Virus record (IMG/VR): IMGVR_UViG_2695420617_000001
Location: 1-6,892 of that record
Direction: 5' to 3' (one strand)
Origin: a virus
Taxonomy: Duplodnaviria > Heunggongvirae > Uroviricota > Caudoviricetes
Length of the DNA: 6,892 nt
The position numbers were made by a program, and so were the translations under genes. Shown here piece by piece: positions 1 to 6,799 of this stretch (the first letter of the stretch is position 1; every line of letters starts with the position of its first letter). The notes beneath the pieces are model-generated. The model was not told the origin of the DNA and made no database searches. It worked only from the letters and a program-made list of their open reading frames with translations.

Positions 1-1461
1 ATTAGTAAGTGTCTTCGCCAGGAAGTCGAAAGAATCCTCGCGAGGCAATAACTTCAGGTCGTACTCACTCATTTGCTGATCAGAAAGCGGGGTATCGTAA
101 GTAGCAATGCCGTAGCGTGCATATTCATAATACGGGTCACCTTCATCAGGGCGCGGCAGAATTGCTTTGTTACCTTCAGGTATTGCGCCAGGGGCCGCCG
201 GACGCATTTGCAGGGCATATCGATATTCACCTACAGAGACTTCTGGTTCAGGCGAAGAGCTACCGGTATCCTCCGCTGGTTCAGGTTCGACGTTTTCCGG
301 TTTATGTTCTTCTGGTTGGACCAGGTATTCCGATACATTACCCGCTTTATAGGCTTTAAACAGCTTGCCGATCGCATCTGCCATGTCCACACCCTGTATG
401 GATTTAGCCTTGATCATGTACACGCTGCCATCCGAATCGGTTAACTGGATATACCCTTCGCCGTCCTCAATGAATTGCTTCATTGATGCACCATTACTGA
501 GCGTCACTTCCCCGTTCATATGCATACGATTTTTGATACTGGCAAGGCGATCCGTCATCGCGCGAGAGTGTCCACCAGTCGTCCCCGCAGGAGCAATGGT
601 ATCGCGCCCACCAGTGCGATTGAGCTGATCAATCTCCGTCTGCAAACGCTCATTCTCTTCATAAAGAGAATCCGCTTCCGATGCAACAGCGTTAATTTTC
701 TGCTCCAGATCTACCTTCTGCCCTTCTACCGCTGCCACCTGATCCACGAGGTCGCTCATGGCATCCTCTTTCTGGTCACTATCAGCCTGTAGTTGGGTTA
801 TTTCATCAACAAGGGCTTTTTTCTTCTTCTGCGCACGCTGAAATTTTGCCGAGTTTTTCTCTGCAAGGTTGGCAAGTTTCATGGTGACCTGCGCCAGCGT
901 CATATCACGTCCACTCATCGGAGCAACGGTGTGAGTAACGTCTTTTTTATTCAGTAAGAACTGGAAAGCAACCAGCGTATCGCTATTGGTGATCCGGTTT
1001 TCCGCTGTCGGGCTATGAAACAGAATGCTGATAGTCTGACCATCACTGAGCGGAATAATGGCTGGCAGGACCGGCAGCCCGTTAACGTTACGTGCCCGGC
1101 CAATTTCAGCACCGCCGATCGCGCGCGCGCCGCTCTGGGCCACATCCCCCGTTTTATCACTCCCCGCAGAGATTCCGGTACCATTCAGCTTCTGGTTCAA
1201 TGCCCGGACAAATGCCTGCATGGTCCGGTGTAACTGCAAACGAGTAGAACTAATCGCCTCCAGTAAATCCGTAGCACACCAGTGGATCGGCGTGTCATAG
1301 AAGAACGTAGCCTCGATTTCCTCCAGGGTGTTGGATTCCGTCATCAGATAGCGGTCCTCACCGGCCATTAATGCGCGATATTCATCATCAGTCACTGGCG
1401 GGGGAAGCACGTCAAGCCCAGGCTTGATCGTCACCCCTTTATTGATATTGAACTGTTCCAT
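1..1461 (-). CDS. Large structural/antirestriction-type protein, DarA-like (P1 dar operon); partial, C-terminal part lies beyond the window start
   Basis: Hand translation of the minus strand gives one uninterrupted frame from ATG (complement of 1459-1461) to position 1, about 487 codons, beginning MEQFNINKGVTIKPGLDVLPPPVTDDEYRALMAGEDRY. An AGGAA Shine-Dalgarno sits 7 nt upstream. It is missing from the ORF track only because no stop occurs inside the window. The many short plus-strand ORFs at 73-1300 are antisense shadows. It shares the motif TL..V....A.KNSAKFQ followed by a coiled-coil with the upstream 203-aa ORF. The DarA name rests on recalled P1 gene order and the Hdf paralogy, not on a search. 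Confidence 0.6.
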   Translation of the reverse strand, partial: MEQFNINKGVTIKPGLDVLPPPVTDDEYRALMAGEDRYLMTESNTLEEIEATFFYDTPIHWCATDLLEAISSTRLQLHRTMQAFVRALNQKLNGTGISAGSDKTGDVAQSGARAIGGAEIGRARNVNGLPVLPAIIPLSDGQTISILFHSPTAENRITNSDTLVAFQFLLNKKDVTHTVAPMSGRDMTLAQVTMKLANLAEKNSAKFQRAQKKKKALVDEITQLQADSDQKEDAMSDLVDQVAAVEGQKVDLEQKINAVASEADSLYEENERLQTEIDQLNRTGGRDTIAPAGTTGGHSRAMTDRLASIKNRMHMNGEVTLSNGASMKQFIEDGEGYIQLTDSDGSVYMIKAKSIQGVDMADAIGKLFKAYKAGNVSEYLVQPEEHKPENVEPEPAEDTGSSSPEPEVSVGEYRYALQMRPAAPGAIPEGNKAILPRPDEGDPYYEYARYGIATYDTPLSDQQMSEYDLKLLPREDSFDFLAKTLTN

Positions 1462-1462
1462 G

Positions 1463-2065
1463 TTAATTTCCTGCTTTCAGTTGCTTAAGACGGCGTTTGA
1501 GTTCGCCATTTCGGGCCTTTTCGTTATTGAGTCGGCCGGTATCCTTATCCAGCTTCGCCCGCAAATCAGTGATCTGCTGTTGATGGAAAGACACCGAGTT
1601 CTGCGCTGATTTATAAGCGGCAACCACCTGAGCATTCCGCTGTTTTGCCTCTTGCAGGCGCTGAAAGTTGGATTTTACTGCCGGTTTCTTGTCTACCGGA
1701 TTGGCAACACGTTTCGCTTTGGCGATCAGTGATTTCTGGAATTTTGCGGAGTTTTTGCGGGCCGCTTGCCCCATGACGGTACCAAGCGTCTTGATATCCG
1801 GCGACTGAGCGTTAGGAATAGCTTTTCCATTCAGCCTCACAGACGATATATCGCCAGTATCGTTTACCTGTATGGCAAGAATTTGTCCGTCGTTAAGAAC
1901 CAGCTTTGCGGTTTTAACTTTAACGCCATCTTTCGTTGTTGCGCGGTTGCTGGAGTCAACCTCAATTACCGTAACACCGGTTTTATTGATCGCCGCGATA
2001 AGGGATTTCAGCCCCTTTTCATTAACCTGGTCAAAATCGACCGTTGCATACTTATTTTTCGTCAT
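1463..2065 (-). CDS. Hdf-like protein (homolog of DarA fragment), paralogous to the downstream large ORF
   Basis: Track ORF 1463..2074 (-). I prefer the second ATG (2063-2065), which has AGGA 8 nt upstream; the first ATG at 2072-2074 has no SD. Stop TAA at 1463-1465 is 1 nt from the next gene's ATG (TAAcATG). Lysine-rich C-terminal coiled-coil. Shares KNSAKFQ and flanking residues with the large ORF at 1-1461. Confidence 0.6.
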   Translation of the reverse strand: MTKNKYATVDFDQVNEKGLKSLIAAINKTGVTVIEVDSSNRATTKDGVKVKTAKLVLNDGQILAIQVNDTGDISSVRLNGKAIPNAQSPDIKTLGTVMGQAARKNSAKFQKSLIAKAKRVANPVDKKPAVKSNFQRLQEAKQRNAQVVAAYKSAQNSVSFHQQQITDLRAKLDKDTGRLNNEKARNGELKRRLKQLKAGN

Positions 2066-2495
2066 CTGACACATCCTGTGCGAGATTTATTACGTAACTT
2101 CTGCGGATTTGCTGAGTAACAGGGAAAATCCGATACAACGGGTTAATGAACGAGTCGCCATGCGTAACCATGACGTTGAAATGCCACAGCCGTTCTCCTT
2201 TACCCATATATTCAGTGGGTATGTACAACCATTCACTGTTTTCGCCCTGTTCAGCCGACGTCAAACAACGTTGTTCGCCTTCAATCACTGTCGTTGGCTT
2301 CTGAACATCGCGGATCCAATATCTGACCGTTGCGCCGCGCAAAAACGGGAATTTAGACCGGTATTTGAACGGCACCCGGATGAAACCCGGTTTAATTTCC
2401 ACATCACCAAGTTCTAAATGCGTGATGTCCTTGCGTTTTAGCAAATAGCGATCGGCTAAGGCTAACGCAAGAGCGCATACACCCCAGCCAATCAT
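2052..2495 (-). CDS. Putative antiholin/lysis regulator (LydB-like), N-terminal signal-anchor
   Basis: 147-aa ORF with hydrophobic N-terminus MIGWGVCALALALA. Its ATG overlaps the stop of the upstream holin-like gene in an ATGA arrangement (2492-2495), indicating translational coupling. Assignment is by position after a holin and recalled P1 lydA-lydB order; no search done. Confidence 0.45.
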   Translation of the reverse strand: MIGWGVCALALALADRYLLKRKDITHLELGDVEIKPGFIRVPFKYRSKFPFLRGATVRYWIRDVQKPTTVIEGEQRCLTSAEQGENSEWLYIPTEYMGKGERLWHFNVMVTHGDSFINPLYRIFPVTQQIRRSYVINLAQDVSDDEK

Positions 2496-2821
2496 TTCCC
2501 ACCTCCCTTTTTCACCAAACTTGTAAGAACATTCAGAATGCTATCGATATTCACTCGTTTCATCCCTGAAATCACCTCATGACCGTTATTGCTGGCTATC
2601 GTTACCATTAAGTACGTAATTGATAACTCCCAGCCCTCGTGTTGCCCCAATAGGTACGCCACCGCGCCAGCTGTCACTGCAACAAAGATCTCCGTAACCA
2701 ATCCCAACAAATTGCCAGACTGGCGACCGTCTCGGACATCCATCAGGAACGTGCCTATCCCACCAATTACTGAAAGCAGGAGCGCAATAGCAACTGGAGC
2801 TAATTCCTGTGTGTCAAGCAC
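2492..2821 (-). CDS. Holin-like membrane protein (LydA-like)
   Basis: 109-aa ORF with GTG start (complement of 2819-2821) and a strong AGGAGG SD 6 nt upstream. Two to three predicted transmembrane segments (LAPVAIALLLSVIGGIGTFL, LLGLVTEIFVAVTAGAVAYLL) and a short charged C-terminal tail (KKGGGK), as is typical of holins. Confidence 0.6.
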   Translation of the reverse strand: MLDTQELAPVAIALLLSVIGGIGTFLMDVRDGRQSGNLLGLVTEIFVAVTAGAVAYLLGQHEGWELSITYLMVTIASNNGHEVISGMKRVNIDSILNVLTSLVKKGGGK

Positions 2822-2895
2822 AAGTTCCCTCCTACGTTGTCAGGAGGTAATGGTATGCAAAGTAACTTCTCAACCGGTTATGTTGCATAAGAGAC

Positions 2896-3159
2896 TTACC
2901 TATTCAACCGACTTTTGGAACCTTCAATAATAAGCCTGCTATTGGCGCTGAAAATAAGAACCATGCAGCTCTGAAGGCTTTCATTCATGTCCTTATATTC
3001 CGCGAGATACATGCCAATAAAGCCAGCAAGTACGGCGGAAATACATTCGGCCAGCAATTTCTTGCATGAGGACTCGTAACGGTTTTCACATAGCCCACTC
3101 AAATACGAATACACCCCACCAAGAAGGGATAACATCACGATATGTACATAAAATGTCAT
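2896..3159 (-). CDS. Small hypothetical membrane protein (87 aa), first gene of the minus-strand operon
   Basis: ORF with ATG at 3157-3159 and a weak AGGT SD. Two hydrophobic stretches (VHIVMLSLLGGVYSYLSGL, LLAECISAVLAGFIGMYLAEY). Same strand as the lysis/dar genes. Function unknown. Confidence 0.4.
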   Translation of the reverse strand: MTFYVHIVMLSLLGGVYSYLSGLCENRYESSCKKLLAECISAVLAGFIGMYLAEYKDMNESLQSCMVLIFSANSRLIIEGSKSRLNR

Positions 3160-3286
3160 TTTTTACCTATACAACAGTAAGTTGAACAACATTTGAGAAC
3201 GGTATGCACTTTGTGATTTCCACACACACTGGTTTTGTTAATTAAAACCTGTAGCTTGCAATAAATAACGATAGTGGGCAGAAAAT

Positions 3287-3472
3287 ATGCTAATAGGCTA
3301 TGTACGCATATAGACAAATGAACAAAACACAGCTATGCAGTGAAAAGCACTTGAAAGCGCAGGATGTGAGCTAATTTTTGCGAATAAGGCGAGCAGCAAA
3401 AAGGCTGGGCACCCTAGTTTAAAAAAGGTTCTGCGTATGCTTTCCAGAGGTGATACCCTAGTCTCGGACTAG
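3287..3472 (+). pseudogene. Decayed 5' remnant of a Cin/Gin-type serine invertase gene (two in-frame stops, 3' part deleted)
   Basis: Plus-strand translation from ATG 3287: MLIGYVRI*TNEQNTAMQ*KALESAGCELIFANKASSKKAGHPSLKKVLRMLSRGDTLV, then unrelated sequence. This aligns over about 59 codons with the intact invertase in this window (MQIGYIRVSTNDQNTDLQRNALNCAGCELIFEDKISGTKSARPGLKKLLRTLSEGDTLV), with TAG at codon 9 and TGA at codon 19. Homology ends at 3463, exactly at the left arm of a palindrome. Confidence 0.75.
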
Positions 3473-3474
3473 GG
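3456..3474. repeat. Perfect palindrome CCCTAGTC-tcg-GACTAGGG at the invertase-remnant breakpoint
   Basis: Arms 3456-3463 and 3467-3474 are exact reverse complements with a 3-nt spacer. The left arm is the last recognisable invertase codons (ccc tag tc = ..T L V). No flanking T-run on either strand, so it is not a typical intrinsic terminator. Confidence 0.7.
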
Positions 3475-3594
3475 ACAACATTTCGAGGACAGTTTTCATT
3501 AGCGGTCAGCAGGCGCTAGATACATCGAATTGATGTGCCGCGCGATAAATGTACCTATTCTATCAAGATAAATTACACCGACGCGGCATTAGAA

Positions 3595-4167
3595 TTACAG
3601 CTCAGATTGAGTTTGGCGCTTCTCTACAGGATGATAACGATAAATCGTCGATACACCGATATCGTAAATAATTGCCAACTGTTTCCTGCTGTAGCCATTT
3701 TCGATCAACCTCGCTATTTGCTCATGTTGTTCTTTTGTCAACTTCGGGCGACGTCCGCCAATGCGTCCCTGTTCGCGTGCAGCTGCCAGTCCGGCCAGTG
3801 TTCTCTCAACAATTAATTCACGTTCCATTTCTGCTAAAGCACCCATGACATGAAAAAAGAAACGCCCCATGGGTGTTGATGTGTCAATACTGTCTGTCAG
3901 ACTACGGAAATTAACACCTTTTTCCCGCAACTCCTCTATAAGCGTGATAAGGTGTTTCATACTTCTGCCAAGCCTATCCAGCTTCCAGACAACCAGCGTA
4001 TCTCCTTCTGATAACGTTCTGAGCAGCTTTTTCAAGCCTGGTCTGGCTGACTTTGTTCCGCTTATTTTATCTTCAAAAATCAGTTCACATCCTGCGCAGT
4101 TCAGTGCATTTCTTTGTAAATCTGTGTTTTGGTCATTTGTTGACACACGAATGTAGCCAATTTGCAT
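3595..4167 (-). CDS. Serine DNA invertase (site-specific recombinase, Pin/Min/Cin/Gin/Hin family)
   Basis: 190 aa from ATG (complement of 4165-4167), with GAGG SD about 9 nt upstream; the track's TTG at 4176 is probably not the start. Hallmark N-terminus MQIGYIRVSTNDQ with the catalytic serine context, then DTLVVWKLDRLGRS, MGRFFFHVMGALAEMERELIVERT, GRIGGRRPKL and a C-terminal helix-turn-helix (GYSRKQLAIIYDIGVSTIYR). Closest by memory to the Pin/Min subfamily. Confidence 0.93.
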   Translation of the reverse strand: MQIGYIRVSTNDQNTDLQRNALNCAGCELIFEDKISGTKSARPGLKKLLRTLSEGDTLVVWKLDRLGRSMKHLITLIEELREKGVNFRSLTDSIDTSTPMGRFFFHVMGALAEMERELIVERTLAGLAAAREQGRIGGRRPKLTKEQHEQIARLIENGYSRKQLAIIYDIGVSTIYRYHPVEKRQTQSEL

Positions 4168-4221
4168 GAAAAACAACCTCTTTGTTTAGTTAAAAATACA
4201 TCGTTGGTATAGGTAGGGATT

Positions 4222-4247
4222 AAGACTAAAACGTTGGTTTGGGGGAA
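4222..4247 (+). other. Invertase crossover site 1 (26 bp: 12-bp half-sites flanking a 2-bp core), boundary site next to the invertase gene
   Basis: AAGACTAAAACG-TT-GGTTTGGGGGAA. The inner AAAACG/xx/GGTTT pattern matches hix/gix/cix-type sites (for example hixL TTCTTGAAAACC-AA-GGTTTTTGATAA). It lies about 55 bp upstream of the invertase start. Confidence 0.7.
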
Positions 4248-4706
4248 GGCTCAGCATTGCCTGTTGGCGTGCCTGTTCCGTGGCCCTCAGCCACTCCGCC
4301 AACGGGGTGGCTGAAATGCAATGGTGCAGCATTTTCTTCTGAAAAGTACCCAAATCTGGCAAAGGCTTACCCTACTAATAAATTGCCGGATCTACGGGGC
4401 GAATTTATTCGCGGCTGGGATGACGGGCGGGGGATTGACTCTGGCCGTAATTTATTATCTGCACAGAATGATGCAATTCAGAATATTGTTGGTTCTTTCG
4501 GGCGTACTCAGCTTTTTAGAGATGTACTTAGTTCAGGGCCATTTAGTCAACATGGTCAAGTATTATCTACAGGCCTAAAGGAAACGGAAATTATTGAGGG
4601 TTATGGCTCTTATAACTGGACATTCGACGCCTCTCGCTCAGTTCGTACAGCATCTGAAACCCGTCCCCGTAATATTGCATTTAATTACATCGTAAGGGCG
4701 GCATAA
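4236..4706 (+). CDS. Tail fibre C-terminal cassette A (start-codon-less gene segment, silent in this configuration)
   Basis: Open frame from the right half of site 1 to TAA 4704-4706: GLGEGSALPVGVPVPWPSATPPTGWLKCNGAAFSSEKYPNLAKAYPTNKLPDLRGEFIRGWDDGRG, a unique core, then ETRPRNIAFNYIVRAA. The collar-like LPDLRGEFIRGWDDGRG motif is typical of phage tail fibres. No ATG or RBS; the track's M is a TTG. Confidence 0.8.
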   Translation, partial: GLGEGSALPVGVPVPWPSATPPTGWLKCNGAAFSSEKYPNLAKAYPTNKLPDLRGEFIRGWDDGRGIDSGRNLLSAQNDAIQNIVGSFGRTQLFRDVLSSGPFSQHGQVLSTGLKETEIIEGYGSYNWTFDASRSVRTASETRPRNIAFNYIVRAA

Positions 4707-4725
4707 AAACGTTGGTTTAGGGGAA
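4700..4725 (+). other. Invertase crossover site 2
   Basis: GGCATAAAAACG-TT-GGTTTAGGGGAA, same orientation as site 1. The left half-site contains the TAA stop of cassette A. Confidence 0.75.
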
Positions 4726-5791: not shown

Positions 5792-6298
5792 TTAATCCGC
5801 CCTCACAATATAATTAAATGCAATATTACGAGGGCGGGTTTCTGTACCTACATTTCCACTAATTTCACCATAACGTTTAACACTACGAGAGCTAATAGCT
5901 CGTAGTGAGGAAGGCACCTTATGACCGGGTTCGTCCGTTTTAACTATTCCCCCGTCACCGTATGTAGCTAGTATTCCTGGATTTACGCCTTCCCGTGCAC
6001 TTCCTGCGGCGAGTCCGTCCCCTGTCCATAATTCCATATAGTGTGCATGGTCCAAAATTGTGTGTGGCTGCCAATTAAGCAAAGCGCGGCCAGCATCCAC
6101 CCCGCGCCCATCATCCCAGCCGCGAATAAATTCTCCCCGTAAATCCGGTAATTTATTGGTGGGGTAGGCTTTTGCCAGTTTGGGATACATTTCAGAAGAA
6201 AATGCTGCACCATTGCATTTCAGCCAGCCCGTTGGTGGTGTTTCTAAGGGCCACGGAACGGGCACGCCAACGGGCAATGCTGAGCCTTCCCCCAAACC
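5792..6298 (-). CDS. Tail fibre C-terminal cassette C (start-codon-less, inverted orientation)
   Basis: Minus-strand frame from site 3 to stop (complement of 5792-5794): GEGSALPVGVPVPWPLETPPTGWLKCNGAAFSSEMYPKLAKAYPTNKLPDLRGEFIRGWDDGRG, a unique core, then ETRPRNIAFNYIVRAD. Its stop is 5 bp from the tfa stop (convergent). Confidence 0.8.
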   Translation of the reverse strand, partial: GLGEGSALPVGVPVPWPLETPPTGWLKCNGAAFSSEMYPKLAKAYPTNKLPDLRGEFIRGWDDGRGVDAGRALLNWQPHTILDHAHYMELWTGDGLAAGSAREGVNPGILATYGDGGIVKTDEPGHKVPSSLRAISSRSVKRYGEISGNVGTETRPRNIAFNYIVRAD

Positions 6299-6312
6299 AA
6301 CGTTTTTATGCC
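6287..6312 (-). other. Invertase crossover site 3 (inverted relative to sites 1 and 2)
   Basis: Plus strand TTCCCCCAAACC-AA-CGTTTTTATGCC, which is the reverse complement of GGCATAAAAACG-TT-GGTTTGGGGGAA. It contains the stop codon of cassette D. Confidence 0.75.
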
Positions 6313-6785
6313 GCCCTTACGATGTAATTAAATGCGATATTTCGTGGACGGGTTTCACTCCCGCCAGTATTACCAATACTCCCTCGAGAATGAAGTGTCG
6401 GTGATGGAATCAAATTCCCTCCTGTATTTGAGGCATCAAGCCCCCGTCCTTGTGTGTATGTTTTTTTGAAAATTGTCGCCAGCTCCCATTCATCTTTTGT
6501 GTCGTAACCATCATTGGCTACAACAATATGTCGGTGCTTTTCCAGCATTCCTGTCTGAATGCTCAATAAAGCACGTCCTGTATCAATGCCGCGTCCATCA
6601 TCCCAGCCACGAATAAACTCACCGCGTAAATCAGGTAATTTTAACGTTGGGTAAGCCTTTGCCAGATTTGGGTACTTTTCAGAAGAAAATGCTGCACCAT
6701 TGCATTTCAGCCAGCCTGTTGGCGGAGTGGCTGAAGGCCACGGAACAGGGACACCAACAGGTAATGCAGAGCCTTCTCCCAAACC
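6306..6785 (-). CDS. Tail fibre C-terminal cassette D (start-codon-less, inverted orientation)
   Basis: Minus-strand frame from site 4 to stop (complement of 6306-6308). Same conserved N-module (..AKAYPTLKLPDLRGEFIRGWDDGRG), unique core, then ETRPRNIAFNYIVRAA. Confidence 0.8.
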   Translation of the reverse strand, partial: GLGEGSALPVGVPVPWPSATPPTGWLKCNGAAFSSEKYPNLAKAYPTLKLPDLRGEFIRGWDDGRGIDTGRALLSIQTGMLEKHRHIVVANDGYDTKDEWELATIFKKTYTQGRGLDASNTGGNLIPSPTLHSRGSIGNTGGSETRPRNIAFNYIVRAA

Positions 6786-6799
6786 AACGTTTTTATGCC
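6774..6799 (-). other. Invertase crossover site 4 (inverted relative to sites 1 and 2)
   Basis: Plus strand TTCTCCCAAACC-AA-CGTTTTTATGCC. It contains the stop codon of the partial cassette E. Confidence 0.75.

Follow-up and report, generated by a model that had tools for sequence, protein, structure and literature searches.

The best described relatives of the locus presented here are the DNA inversion systems of P1 and of p15B, a plasmid of E. coli 15T-. According to the annotation of its GenBank record, P1 has the 3' end of the invertase gene cin facing the invertible DNA, where it overlaps cixL, whereas in Min-, Gin- and Pin-type modules, including that of Mu, it is the 5' end of the invertase gene which faces the invertible DNA. 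In p15B, Sandmeier et al. reportedly found in 1991 the truncated 5' region of an invertase gene beside min; it is said to be highly homologous to P1 cin and was termed ψcin. Sandmeier, Iida and Arber are said to have interpreted Min, in 1992, as the substitution of a Cin-like system. The homology is also laid down in the GenBank record of P1, where P1 31570..31832 is given as 89% identical (1 gap) to nt 7147..7408 of p15B (X62121), and where an identity of 83% to p15B 6463..6533 is noted for the P1 enhancer.

We compared with this arrangement a window of 6,892 nucleotides, which is the whole stretch of DNA that was analysed. At 3287..3463 of its plus strand lies a truncated and inactivated cin DNA invertase gene of P1 type, of which codons 1-59 are left and for which we also use the name ψcin. 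As described for p15B, a truncated cin 5' region of about 262 nt homology to P1, 89% identical with 1 gap, is located beside a min gene in antiparallel orientation; the match of the window to P1 has the same extent (about 262-266 nt), the same identity (89%) and the same single gap as annotated for p15B. The relic lies between lydC and the 3' end of min, which is the place of p15B ψcin, and the distance of 615 bp between the end of the relic (3463) and the enhancer homologue of the active gene (4078) equals that between p15B ψcin and the min enhancer. Positions 3160-3600 of the window are 99.1% identical to pMCR_SCKP-LL83 (MF510496.1), whose invertible region was reported to be 99% identical to the p15B min region (PMC5786510). 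Compared via the P1 annotation and MF510496.1, the relic has no demonstrable difference from p15B ψcin; judged by the P1 record and by MF510496.1/PMC5786510, the window is a p15B-type Min region.

Starting from the observed homology, breakpoints, synteny, fixation of lesions and match to the p15B-type arrangement, we regard ψcin as very probably the non-functional 5' stump of the cin gene of a P1-like phage-plasmid, left behind when a Min-type module replaced the resident inversion system.

Lesions and origin of the cin relic

The first-pass annotation had read positions 3287-3472 as a decayed second invertase gene with a Cin/Gin-type N-terminus, two in-frame stops and the loss of everything after about codon 59, and translation, BLASTP and tblastn confirmed these features. 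On the plus strand, 3287-3472 translates to MLIGYVRI*TNEQNTAMQ*KALESAGCELIFANKASSKKAGHPSLKKVLRMLSRGDTLVSD*. The first stop (TAG, 3311-3313, +) replaces the codon of the catalytic serine, which is TCA in P1, P7, Mu gin and Min; the second one (TGA, 3341-3343, +) replaces CGA (Arg19). The serine nucleophile of the N-terminal YxRVSTxxQ motif is missing from ψcin, its codon being TAG in 45 of 45 relatives. BLASTP aligned ψcin to P1 Cin with 48 identities in 59 residues (81%, E=8e-34) and to the neighbouring active invertase with 36 in 59 (61%, E=5e-25). A functional member of the Din family (Gin/Cin/Hin/Pin/Min) is expected to possess a complete ORF of about 185-195 aa with a full Resolvase domain and a C-terminal HTH. 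Of this, ψcin comprises only codons 1-59 with two internal stops, and the Pfam search matched only positions 2-68 of the 145 profile positions of Resolvase (PF00239, E=1.2e-8) and gave no HTH_7 in ψcin, whereas the active neighbour has both Resolvase and HTH_7. The cin homology ends after 3463, i.e. with codon 59, and a tblastn search found cin residues past 59, i.e. the 3' part of cin, nowhere in the window. Of the span proposed at first, the start and the stump are real, while the recognisable relic ends at 3463 and the remaining nucleotides 3464-3472 are junction filler. The pN/pS ratio of ψcin versus P1 cin is 0.40, compared to 0.09 for the functional P1 and P7 cin genes at similar pS, which indicates relaxed constraint on ψcin. 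Judged from its sequence, ψcin appears to have no detectable present-day activity. A 53-aa ORF with a TTG start (3156-3317, minus strand) runs antisense through the beginning of ψcin, and its end overlaps the start codon of lydC in the sequence ATGA; a 4-nt indel in the P1 alignment and a 2-nt insertion in relatives suggest that this ORF is probably spurious.

The fixation of the lesions was assessed with 45 window-type sequences (27 of them distinct) which span lydC to min and consist of 6 GenBank/RefSeq records plus IMG/VR and metagenome contigs retrieved by spacer pattern. Both stops and the same breakpoint occur in all 45. The window stems from one of many present-day P1-like plasmids of p15B type, of which the sampled members differ from it by 1-2%, and at least 147 PLSDB plasmids have the same arrangement. 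It had been considered that a sequencing error might conceal a full-length gene. That the second invertase gene is in fact intact, its stops and truncation having arisen in sequencing or assembly, is a general possibility with nothing else in its favour, and its probability is negligible: all 45 assemblies, which are independent of one another and come from isolates, IMG/VR and metagenomes, agree in both stops and in the breakpoint, so that a sequencing error is excluded; the PLSDB plasmids share the arrangement, and the window is devoid of any 3' part of cin.

The descent of the relic follows from its identity values and its upstream context. Over 177 nt, the identity of ψcin is 88% with P1 cin (156/177), 67% with the active gene and 63% with Mu gin; the values for P1 cin and Mu gin come from the alignment that the first-pass annotation had proposed as a check. 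The synteny comparison with P1, also suggested there, showed that the lydC-lydA-lydB-hdf side is continuous with P1 at 95% identity over 3463 nt: positions 1-3463 of the window are collinear with P1 darA/hdf-lydB-lydA-lydC-Pcin-cin (95.0% identity). Consequently, the relic occupies the exact place and orientation of cin in P1. The collinearity breaks abruptly at cin codon 59, where the window continues after CCCTAGTC with TCGGAC and P1 continues after CCCTGGTC with GTATGG. The last backbone gene before the relic is the holin-like lydC (2896..3159, minus strand, taken from the ORF list), which is collinear with P1 lydC and, as in P1, divergent from ψcin. PGAP names it "phage holin family protein" in records with 99% identity; in near-identical records, lydC is annotated with a length of 240, 264 or 282 nt. 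Between lydC and ψcin, a relic of the cin promoter and 5'-UTR was located at 3198..3286 (+) by megablast to P1 31570-31836 (89%) and by the promoter annotation of P1. The predicted -10 hexamer of P1cin, TAAAAT, reads TAAAAC in the window and has lost its invariant final T. A promoter scan of 3100-4300 gave no sigma-70-like site, a search allowing up to 3 mismatches found no P1 C1 operator, and no Rfam family matched within 3100-4300.

Both its greater similarity to cin and the cin upstream context place ψcin in the cin lineage. The proposal that it is the relic of a displaced resident invertase was borne out by the 88% identity to P1 cin, as opposed to 67% to the active gene, and by the P1 synteny upstream. 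The same data bear on a partial inverted duplication, by which the stump would stem from the 5' end of the active invertase instead of a separate ancestral gene. Although both copies carry the N-terminus of an invertase and have opposite orientations, the stump is far closer to P1 cin than to the active gene, and the P1 homology runs upstream via the promoter and lydC, a context which the active gene does not have; we rejected such a duplication, which these identities and the synteny upstream render extremely unlikely. With the cin genes of P1 and P7, ψcin shares homologous codons 1-59, the promoter region, the lydC synteny, a nucleotide identity of 88-91% and an enhancer homologue at the same gene positions (nt 19-90). 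In contrast to these genes, it is cut after codon 59, has a stop in place of the serine codon, a second stop and no HTH domain, is accompanied neither by cixL nor by the C segment, and has 2 nt exchanged in its left Fis site. Functional cin genes with more than about 90% identity to the relic were not found, which means that either the donor allele is unsampled or the relic is old.

The junction and the imported invertase module

The relic and the active invertase are antiparallel, as had been noted initially: ψcin (+) is convergent with the active gene (3595-4167, minus strand), and the 3' ends of the two are 131 bp apart. The only stretch of this junction which is unaccounted for is a filler of 12 nt, TCGGACTAGGGA, at 3464..3475. 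It contains GACTAGGG, an inverted copy of positions 3455-3462 (CCCTAGTC), such that a palindrome CCCTAGTC-TCG-GACTAGGG with an 8-bp stem and a 3-nt loop is formed at 3455-3473, exactly where the cin homology ends. Its right arm is polymorphic: GACTAGGG is found in 29 of the 45 sequences and GGCTAGGG in 16, position 3468 being A in the former and G in the latter. The perfect palindrome is consequently not a conserved element and probably not functional; the filler looks like snap-back filler at a deletion junction. No IS was found at the junction of the window, merely these 12 palindromic nucleotides.

The spacer between the filler and the 3' end of the active invertase (3476..3594) is in its entirety common to a second plasmid lineage, L003 (NZ_CP086483.1), the alignment score being 45 versus a maximum of 25 for shuffled sequences. 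Two other assignments were tried. For 3464-3530 as decayed cin 3' sequence, no similarity above shuffled controls was obtained. For 3464-3491 as a continuation of cin codons 60-69, 11 of 28 positions are identical by eye, and a 12-nt filler followed by L003-shared sequence fits better. L003 has the same ψcin-spacer-min layout at 3188-3483, but its relic reaches about cin codon 102 before the same spacer follows, and it carries a different lesion, a 2-bp frameshift. The Min protein of L003 is identical to that of the window. L003 is without lydC and has unrelated DNA upstream of its ψcin. The simplest reading of the two junctions is that the window lineage arose by a secondary deletion of roughly 140 bp in a longer, L003-like relic, the deletion being sealed with snap-back filler. 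Alternatively, the same module may have been inserted independently into two backbones, since the ψcin and the upstream DNA of each lineage resemble the cin of its own backbone.

Directly 3' of the invertase gene, a hairpin of about 60 bp, TGCCGCGCG...CGACGCGGCA, extends over 3524-3590 (folding z = -3.2), and a terminator-like site was detected at 3589-3575 on the minus strand. Unrelated chromosomal prophages have the hairpin, too, at approximately 81% identity and likewise downstream of an invertase gene, by ppiD (L004) and by lom (L005). Being common to prophage modules, it belongs to the imported module, which thus starts no later than about 3524. The element at 3524-3590 probably serves as terminator of the invertase gene and marks where the module ends. 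The sequence from 3528 on matches chromosomal prophage invertase/tail-fibre modules at about 87% identity and in the same arrangement.

The active Min-type invertase (3595..4167, minus strand) is an intact protein of 190 aa with Resolvase catalytic and HTH_7 domains according to Pfam; it is an exact match to UniProt Q05517 (Q05517_ECOLX) and WP_001165547.1. A pattern search located a crossover (mix) site next to its 5' end at 4229..4247 (+) and further mix sites at 4707-4725 (+), 6287-6305 (-) and 6774-6792 (-); these are 4 matches versus 0.04 expected by chance. The module further comprises a tail-fibre assembly gene and an array of Sv-type tail-fibre C-terminal cassettes, which form inverted and direct repeat families. 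As the orientations of the cassettes differ between near-identical plasmids, the resident Min system does invert. Invertase/tail-fibre modules of chromosomal prophages have the same layout, and the invertase, the 3' hairpin and the cassette array resemble them with 87-91% identity. The active neighbour accordingly belongs to the Min/Pin-type modules (p15B Min, e14 Pin, prophage modules), with which it has in common the 3' hairpin, the 5' end pointing toward the crossover site and the multiple Sv-type cassettes; ψcin itself, with 61% amino acid and 67% nucleotide identity, stands outside this lineage. The antiparallel layout is sufficiently explained by the difference in polarity alone, as the incoming gene faces the invertible DNA with its 5' end and cin does so with its 3' end.

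The active gene is itself variable. Among the 45 relatives, its 3' two-thirds (3595-4100) contain 14 variable columns per 100 nt within flanks that are approximately 99% identical, indicating that divergent invertase alleles were exchanged by recombination. In some plasmids the gene is broken, by a frameshift in L013 and by an IS26 insertion in NZ_CP124473.1.

The enhancer homologue in ψcin

The homologue of the P1 cin recombinational enhancer (P1 31678-31749; cin nt 19-90) is located at 3305..3376 and is identical to P1 at 62 of 72 positions, all differences but one being confined to the left 44 nt. Two 15-mers are of interest here, which we take to be putative Fis sites on the basis of their 48-bp spacing and of the Fis consensus reportedly given by Hübner and Arber in 1989; a crude Fis-site score did not discriminate among sites, and spacing and consensus were used instead. 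The left 15-mer, TATAGACAAATGAAC (3309..3323), is present in 44 of the 45 sequences. Its counterpart (centre nt 30) is TATCAACAAATGAAC in P1 and P7, TATCAACAAATGACC in Mu and TGTCAACAAATGACC in Min. The right one, GCGCAGGATGTGAGC (3357..3371), lies 48 bp from the left one and is found in 45 of 45; it is identical to that of P1 and P7, the corresponding sequences (centre nt 78) being GTGCAGGATGTGAAC in Mu and GCGCAGGATGTGAAC in Min. The left site has thus suffered a 2-nt exchange, CA to AG, of nucleotides which P1, P7, Mu and Min have all conserved, and this is the same change that creates the TAG of the first stop. In the experiments of Sandmeier et al. from 1991, the enhancer of p15B ψcin was reportedly inactive and could be activated by substituting two nucleotides; by our own reasoning, the CA to AG exchange plausibly represents these two nucleotides.

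The enhancer homologue of the active gene occupies 4078..4149 on the minus strand (gene nt 19-90), and its Fis-site-like 15-mers, TGTCAACAAATGACC and GCGCAGGATGTGAAC, are intact and 48 bp apart. By spacing, p15B 6463..6533 of the P1 enhancer annotation maps to these positions, 4078-4149. The suggestion that the remnant retains a cis-acting enhancer found no support, given the 2-nt lesion in its left Fis-like site and the complete enhancer which the active gene has of its own. A working enhancer in ψcin would be unlikely as well as unnecessary because of the left-site lesion, the intact Min enhancer and an identity to P1 that is no higher in the enhancer (62/72, 86%) than in the rest of the relic (76/87, 87%). 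We infer the inactivity of the ψcin enhancer from the lesion and from the result reported for the 1991 experiment.

A broader version of the idea is that the stump was kept for a function in cis, as an auxiliary Fis-dependent enhancer of Min, as a Fis or regulatory element for lydC, or for transcription antisense to min. Several observations would fit it. Neither the right 15-mer nor the 28 nt surrounding it differ from P1 or L003, the 48-bp spacing of the sites has been kept in the window lineage, and over nt 2-100 the consensus is shared without change by 140 of 148 PLSDB records. Moreover, nt 1-114 of ψcin contain only 3 singleton variable columns per 114 nt, compared to 18 per 250 nt (7.2 per 100 nt) in flanking non-coding DNA (n=45). 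This deficit looked significant at n=6 and at n=26, but at n=45 the one-sided binomial p is about 0.07 for a segment that was chosen post hoc, so that it is not significant. Against the idea, the left site is altered at positions conserved in every functional enhancer compared, Min has its own complete enhancer, and the divergence between ψcin and P1 is not lower in the enhancer than elsewhere. L003 has kept both Fis-like sites, but a 2-bp deletion between them reduces their spacing to 46 bp, and non-integral changes of helical phasing are reported to abolish the activity of the Hin enhancer (Johnson et al., 1987). The invariant T of the predicted P1cin -10 hexamer is gone, and the scans detected neither a sigma-70-like site nor a C1 operator. 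In the 1991 experiment, the enhancer of p15B ψcin was reportedly inactive when assayed. Taken together, retention for a function in cis is very unlikely. It is slightly less improbable, though still unlikely, that the stump is not entirely inert and that its first 114 nt or so are under weak constraint, be it as a residual Fis-binding element or as a homology arm.

Recurrent cin relics and the exchange of tail-fibre modules

Further 5' relics of cin were found in P1-like plasmids that have fixed tail-fibre genes and no invertase gene nearby. In L011, the relic spans about 19 codons (3591-3642); in L009 and L010, it spans about 72 codons (3590 to approximately 3800). A truncated cin has been described for pSvP1 and pTZ20_1P (Venturini et al. 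2019, PMC6906374). Like the relic of the window, these are partial 5' cin fragments which remained after the tail-fibre region was rearranged; in the published cases this was mediated by IS elements, whereas the junction of the window is without an IS. The relics of about 19, 59, 72 and 102 codons found across P1-like plasmids indicate that the turnover of tail-fibre modules repeatedly has its left boundary at the 5' end of cin.

For the window we infer the following order of events. The ancestral P1-like phage-plasmid would have carried cin followed by a P1-type invertible C segment. Both would then have been replaced by a Pin/Min-type module consisting of 3' hairpin, invertase, crossover sites and a multi-cassette tail-fibre array, with the incoming invertase antiparallel to the stump and its 5' end toward the invertible DNA. 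The decay of the stump would have come afterwards, turning the catalytic serine codon into TAG and Arg19 into TGA and adding an excess of non-synonymous changes.

If the first part of the stump did serve as a homology arm, which is the unlikely possibility mentioned above, it would match the cin genes in other P1-like plasmids, and with this arm on one side and the conserved tail-fibre gene on the other, the entire Min host-range module might move between backbones by homologous recombination. This would explain why two very different backbones, those of the window and of L003, each possess a ψcin like their own cin in combination with the same spacer and an identical Min protein.

In window-type plasmids, PGAP leaves the relic without annotation; a pseudogene is marked only in the L003 lineage with its longer stump. 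This is why surveys of P1-like plasmids can take ψcin for a second recombinase or overlook it, and herein lies the value of the present description for annotation. In phage vB_EcoM-813R1 (L002, 4436-5007), the annotation divides the Min-type invertase into two CDS, "Hin1" and "Hin2", and lacks the ψcin relic.

The relic is real but ordinary. Both it and its evolutionary reading have reportedly been known as p15B ψcin since 1991, and the point of module replacement was reportedly made for p15B and P1 in 1991-92, so that no new biology is implied; the recurrence of cin 5' relics of several lengths is the modest addition of the present survey. What the locus offers is a clean, datable footprint of the exchange of a phage host-range switch, in which one invertase/tail-fibre module very probably took the place of another while the backbone was conserved.
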